64,000 nt of DNA from an uncultured Chloroflexia bacterium (GTDB taxonomy: Bacteria > Chloroflexota > Limnocylindria > Limnocylindrales > CSP1-4). The DNA lies in contig CAWFXA010000002.1 of assembly GCA_963819655.1 (NCBI GenBank), positions 1,568,001-1,632,000 of the forward strand, read 5' to 3'. The position numbers and the translations under genes were made by a program. This document shows, piece after piece, positions 46,846 to 47,286 of this stretch (the first letter of the stretch is position 1; each line of letters opens with the position of its first letter). Under the pieces are notes generated by a model that did no database searches, was not told the origin of the DNA, and worked only from the letters and a program-made list of their open reading frames with translations.

Positions 46846-47286
46846 ATGAACTACGAGCTGTTCATGGGCGAGGCGCTCGCGGAGGCACAGCTCGCTGTCG
46901 GGCGTGGTGAGCGGCCGATCGCGGCCGTCGCCGTCGTGGACGAGGCGATGGTCGCGCGCGCCCATGACCGAGTCGAGCAGGCCGACGACCCGACCGCTCA
47001 CGCCGTGGTCGTCGCGCTCCGTGATGCCGCGCGTCGGCTCGGTCGGGGACGGCTCGCTGACGCCACGATCTTCACCACCGAGGAGCCGTGCGCGATGTGT
47101 GTCGGCGCGCTCCTGGAGAGCGATGTCGAAGCGCTCGTGTACGCGGTCCCGAACACCCGGGACGGGGCTGCCGGGACCGTCGTCCAGCTCGCCCAGCATG
47201 CTTCGTTGCCGCGCCGGATCAAGGTCGTGAGCGGCATCCGTCGCGACGAGGTCGAGGCGCTCTTCGCCGCCAGTCCGACCGTCTAG
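46846..47286 (+). CDS. tadA: TadA-like nucleoside deaminase with catalytic Glu replaced (HAV)
   Basis: DPTAHAVVVAL, TEEPCAMC and DGAAGT; syntenic upstream of tRNA-Ser/ffs/dnaX. Confidence 0.85.
   Translation: MNYELFMGEALAEAQLAVGRGERPIAAVAVVDEAMVARAHDRVEQADDPTAHAVVVALRDAARRLGRGRLADATIFTTEEPCAMCVGALLESDVEALVYAVPNTRDGAAGTVVQLAQHASLPRRIKVVSGIRRDEVEALFAASPTV

Follow-up and report, generated by a model that had tools for sequence, protein, structure and literature searches.

Why should a bacterium retain an intact gene of the TadA type that has lost the codon of the catalytic glutamate, in a genome in which no tRNA with A34 was found? TadA is regarded as a single-purpose enzyme, essential since tRNA-Arg(ACG) needs inosine. 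The gene that raises this question, designated here tadA*, lies on the forward strand of the window, i.e., of the whole stretch of 64,000 nucleotides of contig CAWFXA010000002.1 (assembly GCA_963819655.1) that was analysed. Its host genome, G000, is a metagenome-assembled genome (MAG) of Chloroflexota, class Candidatus Limnocylindria, of 3.49 Mb in 3 contigs, with 69% GC and a completeness of 91%. An earlier, sequence-only reading of the window had proposed that tadA* encodes a catalytically dead TadA in a lineage that dropped inosine decoding. Results of our analysis indicate that tadA* is very probably both dead and maintained by selection. On balance, they incline us to the view that its product is a non-catalytic pseudo-TadA, encoded by a positional orthologue of tadA and kept for a binding role.

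The tadA* product and its key residues

The open reading frame (ORF) of tadA* is intact and encodes a protein of 146 aa, in which the HAE motif of TadA is changed to HAV. Ala53 (GCC) stands between the two residues concerned. The gene and the codons on which the argument depends are as follows, all on the forward strand:

46846..47286, forward strand: tadA*, TadA-fold gene without the catalytic Glu (pseudo-deaminase), by ORF, domain, alignment and structure-model evidence
GAC 46966-46968, forward strand: Asp41, which occupies the place of the Asn that binds adenine N3 (N46 in E. coli, N42 in S. aureus), by alignment
CAC 46999-47001, forward strand: His52, the first Zn ligand, read directly
GTG 47005-47007, forward strand: Val54, in place of the proton-shuttle Glu (E. 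coli E59), read directly
TGC 47089-47091 and TGT 47098-47100, forward strand: Cys82 and Cys85, the other two Zn ligands, read directly
47146..47154, forward strand: Val101-Pro102-Asn103, corresponding to E. coli positions 106-108 in the loop after strand 4, clade-variable, by alignment

The full-length ORF, the retained Zn ligands and the change of HAE to HAV, all of which had been described before, can be read directly from the sequence. The protein matches the Pfam families MafB19-deam (PF14437, 84.9 bits) and dCMP_cyt_deam_1 (PF00383, 73.6 bits). Among NCBIfam models, the TadA equivalog NF008113 fits best, with a score of 107.9 bits that is under the cut-off of 150 bits. Identity of tadA* to TadA proteins of solved structure is 33-38%. 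In HMMER alignments its residues 2-140 align gap-free to E. coli-derived TadA chains, the E. coli number being that of the query plus 5. With wild-type E. coli TadA, which we take to have N46 and G-A-R-D at positions 105-108, this alignment bears out the earlier statement that the N46 to D, A106V and D108N changes are present in the tadA* protein itself. Engineered TadA chains read V-R-N at positions 106-108, and one with V106 and N108 (8e2q) scored 96.8 bits against tadA*, vs. 85.0 bits for the wild-type 1z3a.

The sequencing-run evidence for the decisive codon consists of assembled contigs throughout, and none of the runs contained as much as half of the sequence words. Contigs of the DNA runs X1 and X3 and of the RNA-library run X15 span positions 47005-47007, with no other letter listed, and independent assemblies have Val in 139 (query included) and Ile in 2 of the 189 aligned sequences. 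The GTG codon is therefore genuine, as had been supposed, and an assembly or sequencing error at this position was ruled out by the run contigs together with the same Val in independent assemblies. RNA-library contigs also cover parts of tadA* (X15, 46845-47203; X16, 47092-47298), which is no proof of transcription.

Decoding of arginine codons in the host genome

The presence of a tRNA-Arg with anticodon GCG upstream of tadA*, noted previously, was confirmed:

40777..40852, forward strand: tRNA-Arg(GCG), anticodon loop UUGCGGA, the G34 decoder of CGC and CGU that replaces tRNA-Arg(ACG to ICG)

In the whole genome, ARAGORN found 50 tRNAs, which cover all 20 amino acids. The Arg anticodons are TCG, CCG, GCG, TCT and CCT, and neither tRNA-Arg(ACG) nor any other A34 tRNA is among the 50 tRNAs of this 91%-complete genome. 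According to a rough count in 1459 long ORFs (a crude gene set), CGC accounts for 36% of Arg codons, CGG for 28%, CGA for 17% and CGT for 14%, and therefore the commonest Arg codon is read by the G34 tRNA through Watson-Crick pairing.

Searches of the same 91%-complete genome with PF00383, PF14437 and the tadA* protein found no second TadA, hidden or otherwise. The supposition that this genome has neither tRNA-Arg(ACG) nor another TadA thus held for the assembled part of the genome. Only two other genes of the deaminase fold were found, both of HGE types. One (C2:1232383-1232676, reverse strand; L001 1321-1797) is a yeast-type cytosine-deaminase-like gene with HGE...PCDMC, seemingly frameshifted near GGED. 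The other (C3:964289-964597, reverse strand; L003) encodes a guanine-deaminase-like HGE...PCPMC domain fused to a C-terminal VOC/glyoxalase-like region, a fusion present also in G095. The C-terminal part of the cytosine-deaminase-like gene runs on in another frame and the G021 orthologue (L028) is intact, which may reflect an assembly indel or a pseudogene.

The tRNA set of G000 has a further peculiarity. It includes a tRNA-Ile(UAU) at C2:118098-118173 (reverse strand) and, for the anticodon CAU, no more than two tRNA genes. PF01171, the PP-loop family of TilS, had no match in G000, with 14 of 14 controls positive. AUA makes up about 3.5% of Ile codons (rough count). It seems that the k2C34 system for AUA was also replaced by a U34 tRNA, so that wobble decoding would have been simplified in a second respect in this lineage. 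At C2:1366936-1367030 (reverse strand) and C2:1010835-1010931, ARAGORN also reported an odd 'tRNA-???', whose anticodon has two bases (ct), and a tRNA-SeC.

Distribution of the glutamate loss in Limnocylindria

Among 344 related loci in named genomes, the best 80 are 74-97% identical. Nearly all of these 80 are titled as MAGs of Candidatus Limnocylindrales, Limnocylindria or Chloroflexota, and their motif is HAV in 79 and HAI in one. Orthologues of tadA* are present in 20 of the 24 other genomes of the genus, all with HAV; this count leaves out G021, where the matches are paralogues. A class-level draw comprised 151 genomes, each at least 80% complete, in families denoted here f1 (that of the host) to f5. 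The tadA* protein had matches in 38/44 genomes of f1, 0/6 of f2, 40/49 of f3, 48/50 of f4 and 1/1 of f5, with identities of 52-61% in f4 and 38-47% in f3. The motifs sampled were HAV in f1 (26/26) and f4 (9/9), and HAE in f3 (8/8) and f5 (1/1). Scores on NF008113 were 120-122 bits for the f4 copies and 139-149 bits for the HAE copies of f3 and f5.

Family f2, of the same order, has genomes of 1.0-1.4 Mb, and the tadA* protein had no match in any of 16 of them. In the one f2 locus with ORFs listed (L057), the arrangement tRNA-Ser(GCU)-tRNA-Arg(GCG)-...-tRNA-Ser(CGA) is kept with no tadA in between.

The expectation that the glutamate loss would be fixed in relatives is supported by all sampled orthologues of f1 and f4 being non-Glu, and the loss in these two families is, on the orthologues compared, old and fixed. 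As a statement on the lineage as a whole, the earlier proposal holds only for part of the class: f1 and f4 carry the non-Glu state, f3 and f5 keep HAE together with tRNA-Arg(ACG), and f2 has lost the gene. In one f1 genus the locus L283 (G074 C56:400-1200) reads DPTAHAI, with Ile for Val at the Glu position. In the aligned sequences, this position is one that tolerates beta-branched hydrophobic residues and never reverts to Glu.

In a phylum-level draw of 401 genomes, the pattern DPTAHAV was found in 19 of 23 f1 genomes plus G000 and in 15 of 17 f4 genomes; the search needs the exact DPTAH context, so diverged copies escape it. Outside the class the pattern occurred in 6 of 354 Chloroflexota genomes, and all six cases were rejected as chance matches in unrelated frames. 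The best 150 matches in a library of 1.84 billion proteins included 35 that are clearly HAV and 84 that are HAE. Two library proteins, P0050 (HAV) and P0125 (HPI), fall outside the tadA* clade in the tree, which indicates separate losses of the Glu elsewhere.

Co-distribution with the tRNA-Arg anticodon

If the loss of the glutamate is connected with the loss of the tRNA substrate, both should occur in the same genomes. For this comparison, a D-arm-plus-anticodon pattern for tRNA-Arg was run over the 151 class genomes and crossed, with counting by script, with the pattern DPTAHA[V/E]. The tRNA pattern assigned tRNA-Arg(GCG) to 38 f1 genomes (G000 included), 6/6 f2 genomes, 46/50 f4 genomes and one f3 genome (G089), and tRNA-Arg(ACG) to 27 f3 genomes, with the loop CUACGAA or CUACGGA. 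All 29 tRNA-Arg loci of relatives that were scanned have GCG.

The raw cross-table contained 77 genomes with HAV and GCG, 21 with HAE only and ACG, and two apparent exceptions. The 'HAV' match in G092 turned out to be a chance match. In G074, the orthologue is the HAI one, and the HAE match is a guanine-deaminase-like paralogue. The final cross-table comprises 78 genomes with a non-Glu motif and GCG, 22 with HAE and ACG, and none that is discordant; tRNA-Arg(ACG) was found in none of the 78 non-Glu genomes with a readable tRNA-Arg pattern. Genomes G102, G122, G135 and G156 enter only the class match and pattern tallies and no cell of this table. The predicted co-occurrence of glutamate loss with tRNA-Arg(GCG) and absence of tRNA-Arg(ACG) is thus seen in 78 genomes vs. 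none discordant, these genomes being kin, so that the table represents one or few events and not 100 independent trials.

In three f3 genomes without a TadA match (G044, G089 and G070), only RibD was found, and two of them, G044 and G089, have tRNA-Arg(GCG) with an acceptor stem of the f3 type. Outright loss of tadA has therefore occurred also within f3.

The D-arm-plus-anticodon pattern outperformed BLAST for tRNA-Arg(ACG). With the GCG gene as query, BLAST found tRNA-Arg(ACG) in only two of five HAE genomes, and a second query added two more. The tRNA-Arg(ACG) genes of f3 at L228 409-481 (G154) and L234 1223-1297 (G079) differ greatly from one another, and their T-arms, with the loops TCCGATT and ATCGTGC, are unusual. 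Among f1, f2 and f4, the tRNA-Arg(GCG) genes are 85-100% alike and their T-loops are canonical.

Selection and phylogeny

A gene that has lost both its catalytic residue and its substrate might simply be decaying. For 16 coding sequences of the genus that satisfied a filter for start codon and length (which excluded L011, L020 and L024; G001 gives two copies), the ratio of nonsynonymous to synonymous substitution rates (dN/dS) calculated by the Nei-Gojobori method in 120 pairs had a median of 0.137 and a range of 0.038-0.26, at a median dS of 0.83. As dN/dS is about 0.14, tadA* is not decaying. The purifying selection expected from the earlier proposal is evident, and a decaying pseudogene was ruled out by this median.

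In a quick maximum-likelihood tree of 99 rows, the 49 rows of the non-Glu clade form one group on a long stem, with a support of 99 in the Shimodaira-Hasegawa-like approximate likelihood ratio test. The tree is compatible with a single origin of this clade.

Residue changes relative to canonical TadA

Residue frequencies were compared between 140 non-Glu and 48 HAE sequences (E. coli numbering). Residues H57, C87 and C90, as well as D53-A58 and E85-P86, are invariant in both groups, and E140 is kept (85%). The position of E59 is Val in 99% and Ile in 1% of the non-Glu sequences. Position 46 is D in 93% of them and N in 98% of the HAE sequences; the equivalent N42 of S. aureus TadA binds adenine N3 (PMC8216470). 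The adenine-stacking position 30 is variable in the non-Glu sequences. At position 98, where R94 of the S. aureus enzyme binds the backbone of the anticodon loop (PMC3711424), D is present in 85% of the non-Glu and R in 100% of the HAE sequences. The position of K110 is Arg105 in tadA*, R in 45% of the clade (also V, H, L, E and Q) and K in 81% of the canonical sequences. N127 is changed to P and H128 to R, and F148/F149 are replaced by variable A, L or P. Features of the TadA clade listed in PMC3239186 include the strand-2 Asn, a basic residue after strand 4 and C-terminal helices whose conserved E and F (F148/F149) bind the anticodon loop.

Other changes concern the protein as a whole. A median of 18 residues follows the conserved Gly (E. 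coli G135) in the non-Glu proteins vs. 26 in the HAE ones, i.e., about 8 fewer, and the median net charge is -6 vs. -3 in canonical TadA. The clade has conserved residues of its own, namely N7, E9, L10, E14, A39, M40, R47, R68, L94, V99, A114, A121, S134 and R137.

Two interpretations offered previously find no place in this picture. The A106V and D108N changes had been read as a remodelled substrate loop, but they vary within the clade (of the 140 sequences, 53% have V at position 106, and 71% have N and 21% D at position 108), and this variation looks like relaxed constraint rather than a designed change. The suggestion that tadA* could serve as a natural base-editor scaffold is unsupported: K110, the FF motif at the C-terminus and the residues of the adenine pocket (E59, N46, V30) are all changed or relaxed.

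The pattern of conservation bears also on the question whether tadA* could still be an enzyme, with a Zn-water centre served by another general base, such as Asp41 (position 46), and acting on a new substrate instead of A34, be it a free nucleoside or a different base of RNA or DNA. The invariant H, C, C and E85-P86 in the 140 non-Glu sequences, the change of N46 to D in 93% of them alongside that of E59 to V, and the strong purifying selection would all fit such a shift of catalysis. Every characterised deaminase of the CDA superfamily, however, uses the Glu of HxE/CxE, and ADAT3, which carries the same Glu-to-Val change, is inactive and is not rescued by V225E (PMC8216470). Moreover, position 46 is not D in the deepest non-Glu subclade (S in P0012) nor in the separate P0050 (L), and the adenine-stacking position 30 and K110 are unconstrained. 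We regard a still active tadA* enzyme as unlikely.

Predicted structure and homodimer

The AlphaFold model of tadA*, based on an alignment of 61 rows, has a predicted local distance difference test (pLDDT) value of 95 and a predicted template modelling (pTM) score of 0.90, with lower confidence only in the 101-110 loop and at the C-terminus. Its top matches in Foldseek are the TadA proteins of Aquifex, Bacillus and Staphylococcus (1wwr, 7cph and 2b3j), with template modelling (TM) scores of about 0.9; the TMq of ADAT3 is 0.83. Pfam, the model and Foldseek agree in assigning tadA* to the deaminase fold of the helix-4 division with TadA-like topology.

A model with two copies of tadA* scored 0.85 vs. 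0.00 for the best of three controls, a score which, with TadA homodimers present in the Protein Data Bank (PDB), shows likeness of the interface and not dimerisation. Of 30 proteins whose solved structures are pairs of the same chain, 20 reach the mark used for dimers, as does 1 of the 23 whose solved structures are single chains. The runs of the dimer model agreed in at least 98% of contacts, with a partner pLDDT of at least 92. The homodimer interface is thus predicted to be conserved.

This prediction matters for the possibility that tadA* is a non-catalytic subunit of the ADAT3 kind, which would form a heterodimer with an active paralogous deaminase, to which it would present RNA. Such a role would be in line with the Glu-to-Val change and the loss of substrate determinants that tadA* shares with ADAT3, and a second DPTAHAE deaminase is present in many f1 and f4 genomes. 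DPTAHAE genes additional to tadA* were found in 13 relatives, of which nine were examined (G119, G128 and G170 are outside those nine). Eight of the nine are guanine-deaminase-like or other deaminases, by scores of 70-86 bits on the TadA model or, in G125, by eye, which speaks against them as partners; the ninth, in G088, is a canonical TadA. G000 itself has no DPTAHAE paralogue, its two other deaminases being of HGE types and one of them seemingly frameshifted, and it has no A34 tRNA. Furthermore, tadA* has no N-terminal tRNA-binding domain, and its homodimer interface is predicted with high confidence. A subunit of this kind is, in our opinion, quite improbable.

Locus and upstream region

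The order of genes around tadA* is: phosphofructokinase (PFK, reverse strand), tadA*, tRNA-Ser(CGA), tRNA-Ser(GGA), a gene of the MBL fold, signal recognition particle (SRP) RNA, dnaX, ybaB, recR and an rRNA operon. The neighbouring features are:

45567..46751, reverse strand: phosphofructokinase, divergent upstream neighbour, not kept in f4
46831..46839, forward strand: TGCTAGCAT, extended -10-like motif 6 nt before the ATG, found exactly in 65/134 orthologue upstream regions
47360..47445, forward strand: tRNA-Ser(CGA), separated from the upstream tadA* by 74 nt that contain no terminator-like site
47555..47642, forward strand: tRNA-Ser(GGA)
48753..49017, forward strand: SRP RNA (ffs), within the conserved tadA-tRNA-Ser-ffs-dnaX synteny
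49054..50844, forward strand: dnaX

The tadA-tRNA-Ser-ffs-dnaX neighbourhood was found as described before. The distance of 74 nt to tRNA-Ser(CGA) compares with 53 nt for the HAE tadA of f5 and 56 nt for tadA* of f4, and the HAE tadA of f3 lies 2.5-4.3 kb upstream of the equivalent tRNA-Ser-tRNA-Ser-ffs block. As its position relative to this block matches that of the HAE tadA of f5 and f3, tadA* is a positional orthologue of tadA. The upstream neighbour varies, and in f4 it is a membrane protein without a determined family instead of PFK.

The claim that tadA* has its own extended -10 promoter stands in part. Of 134 orthologues, 78 have the motif TGnTAnnnT within the 45 nt that precede the start, and in 76 it lies 6-9 nt from the start, with variable flanks, but a generic sigma-70 promoter scan yielded 0 sites, so that TGCTAGCAT was not called, and a terminator scan yielded nothing. 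Conservation of TGnTAnnnT suggests an extended -10 promoter and a putative leaderless, or nearly leaderless, tadA* transcript.

The closeness to the tRNA genes brings in a further explanation, in which the ORF is retained not for the sake of its protein but, e.g., as a promoter-proximal part of the tRNA-Ser/ffs unit, or is a slowly decaying relic. It draws on the short distance of 53-74 nt to the downstream tRNA-Ser(CGA) and the lack of a terminator-like site, on the deletion in f2 and on three frameshifted copies in the genus. A dN/dS of 0.14 at a dS of 0.83, however, means that selection acts on the encoded amino acids, almost all of the roughly 140 assemblies have an open frame, identity between families is 52-61%, and the frameshifted copies come from assemblies of 8-20 contigs and may be indel errors. 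We consider this explanation highly improbable.

Elsewhere in the window, the ORF at 43976-45544 (forward strand), which is 3-hydroxyisobutyrate-dehydrogenase-like, has about 230 extra N-terminal residues without a Pfam match, possibly because of a miscalled start or a fusion.

Proposed explanation

In the explanation that we favour, an ancestor of f1, f2 and f4 would have exchanged tRNA-Arg(ACG), whose A34 must be edited to I34, for tRNA-Arg(GCG) as the decoder of the CGN box; together with the UCG and CCG tRNA-Arg species, the latter reads all four CGN codons without inosine. TadA would then have lost the proton-shuttle Glu (to Val) and most of its contacts with adenine and the anticodon loop. 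Its fold, Zn ligands and predicted homodimer interface would have been preserved and clade-specific conserved residues acquired, and strong purifying selection would have continued since. What is retained would be a protein scaffolded by Zn, probably a dimer, on which a new surface is conserved.

By analogy with characterised deaminases, we infer that tadA* cannot deaminate; from its ligand residues it probably still binds Zn, and from the model it presumably dimerises. Retention for a binding or scaffolding role would follow, most likely in tRNA or RNA biology, and RNA is our first guess for the ligand because tadA* is fixed at the head of the tRNA-Ser/ffs cluster. Acidity and the short C-terminal helix would argue against the old RNA-binding mode of TadA. 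The role is dispensable in f2, since these streamlined genomes of 1.0-1.4 Mb deleted the gene. It is conceivable, albeit doubtful, that a second, non-catalytic function of TadA, e.g., RNA chaperoning or binding or that of a regulatory partner, predates the loss of editing. If so, f1 and f4 would show this function on its own, in a homodimeric equivalent of ADAT3 from bacteria that selection has maintained throughout the history of both families although there is no inosine for it to form.

Several observations weigh against the proposal of a dead protein kept for binding. The genus orthologues in G007, G015 and G022 look frameshifted, and about 15% of f1 genomes have no match, so that loss may be tolerated beyond f2. 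Genome G088 of f4 holds, besides the HAV tadA*, a canonical HAE TadA (184 bits on NF008113, on a contig of 7.6 kb). The missing part of the 91%-complete G000 could hold tRNA-Arg(ACG) or a TadA, though the relatives argue otherwise. No conserved protein-coding neighbour hints at a partner, either here or in the f4 loci. The more acidic protein and its shorter C-terminal tail would speak against simple RNA binding, and the invariant Zn ligands and T83-E85-P86, with a carboxylate at position 46 (D 93%), leave room for a shifted catalytic residue. The supposed inactivity of tadA* is argued from the universal role of the HxE Glu and from ADAT3.

The two loci of G088 are located at C56:3794-4228 and C60:1478-1888 (L206 and L205); no tRNA-Arg pattern match was found in this genome, and either contamination or real coexistence may be involved.

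Comparison with known systems

In comparison to bacterial TadA (NF008113; 1Z3A, 2B3J, 1WWR, 7CPH), tadA* shares the fold, the Zn ligands, the EPCxMC motif, the tadA-tRNA-Ser-ffs-dnaX locus and the predicted homodimer. It differs in the absence of the catalytic Glu, in the changed or relaxed N46, R98, K110, N127/H128 and F148/F149, in a shorter C-terminal helix, in a score of 107.9 bits vs. the cut-off of 150 bits and in having no tRNA-Arg(ACG) substrate in the genome. JGI/IMG names members of the clade 'tRNA(adenine34) deaminase', an annotation from which inosine decoding would be wrongly inferred for a widespread group of soil and freshwater bacteria, and modification surveys that score the presence of a homologue alone would miss the loss of I34.

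The closest parallel is ADAT3 (Tad3; 7NZ7), with which tadA* has a sequence match at E = 1e-11 (HMMER). According to PMC8216470, its TadA-derived domain has Val for the proton-shuttle Glu, is inactive, keeps the Zn triad, has lost the determinants for the anticodon loop and has a shortened C-terminal helix; that 'Tad3 lacks the E' is stated also in PMC3239186. All of these sequence features recur in tadA*. The differences are that ADAT3 has an N-terminal ferredoxin-like tRNA-binding domain, whereas tadA* is a single domain of 146 aa, and that ADAT3 acts only with the active ADAT2 and serves the formation of inosine, whereas tadA* has neither a TadA partner nor an inosine substrate in G000. The origin of tadA*, a bacterial clade in the tree, is also independent. 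It appears as an independent replay of the ADAT3 route, with Glu changed to Val and the RNA determinants lost.

Loss of the I34 enzyme has been tied to loss of the target tRNA in other bacteria, as here. It has been described that Mollicutes lose tadA and change tRNA-Arg ACG to GCG (Yokobori et al. 2013, PMC3711424), and that TadA was lost in several bacterial clades together with its target tRNA (Diwan and Agashe 2018, PMC6063277). In those cases, tadA was weakened and then deleted, mostly during genome reduction, whereas here a soil lineage with a 3.5-Mb genome of 69% GC keeps a conserved dead protein and the streamlined sister family f2 deletes it. In the portions of the full-text literature covered, no publication was found that describes an inactive but conserved TadA in bacteria or a tRNA-Arg(GCG) in Chloroflexota, although PMC6063277 may list Chloroflexi.

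A protein kept for long without its catalytic residue, after the need for inosine has gone, bears the signature of a second function, for which these bacteria offer a clean natural system. For lineages that abandon I34, it represents a third outcome, besides keeping tadA and deleting it.

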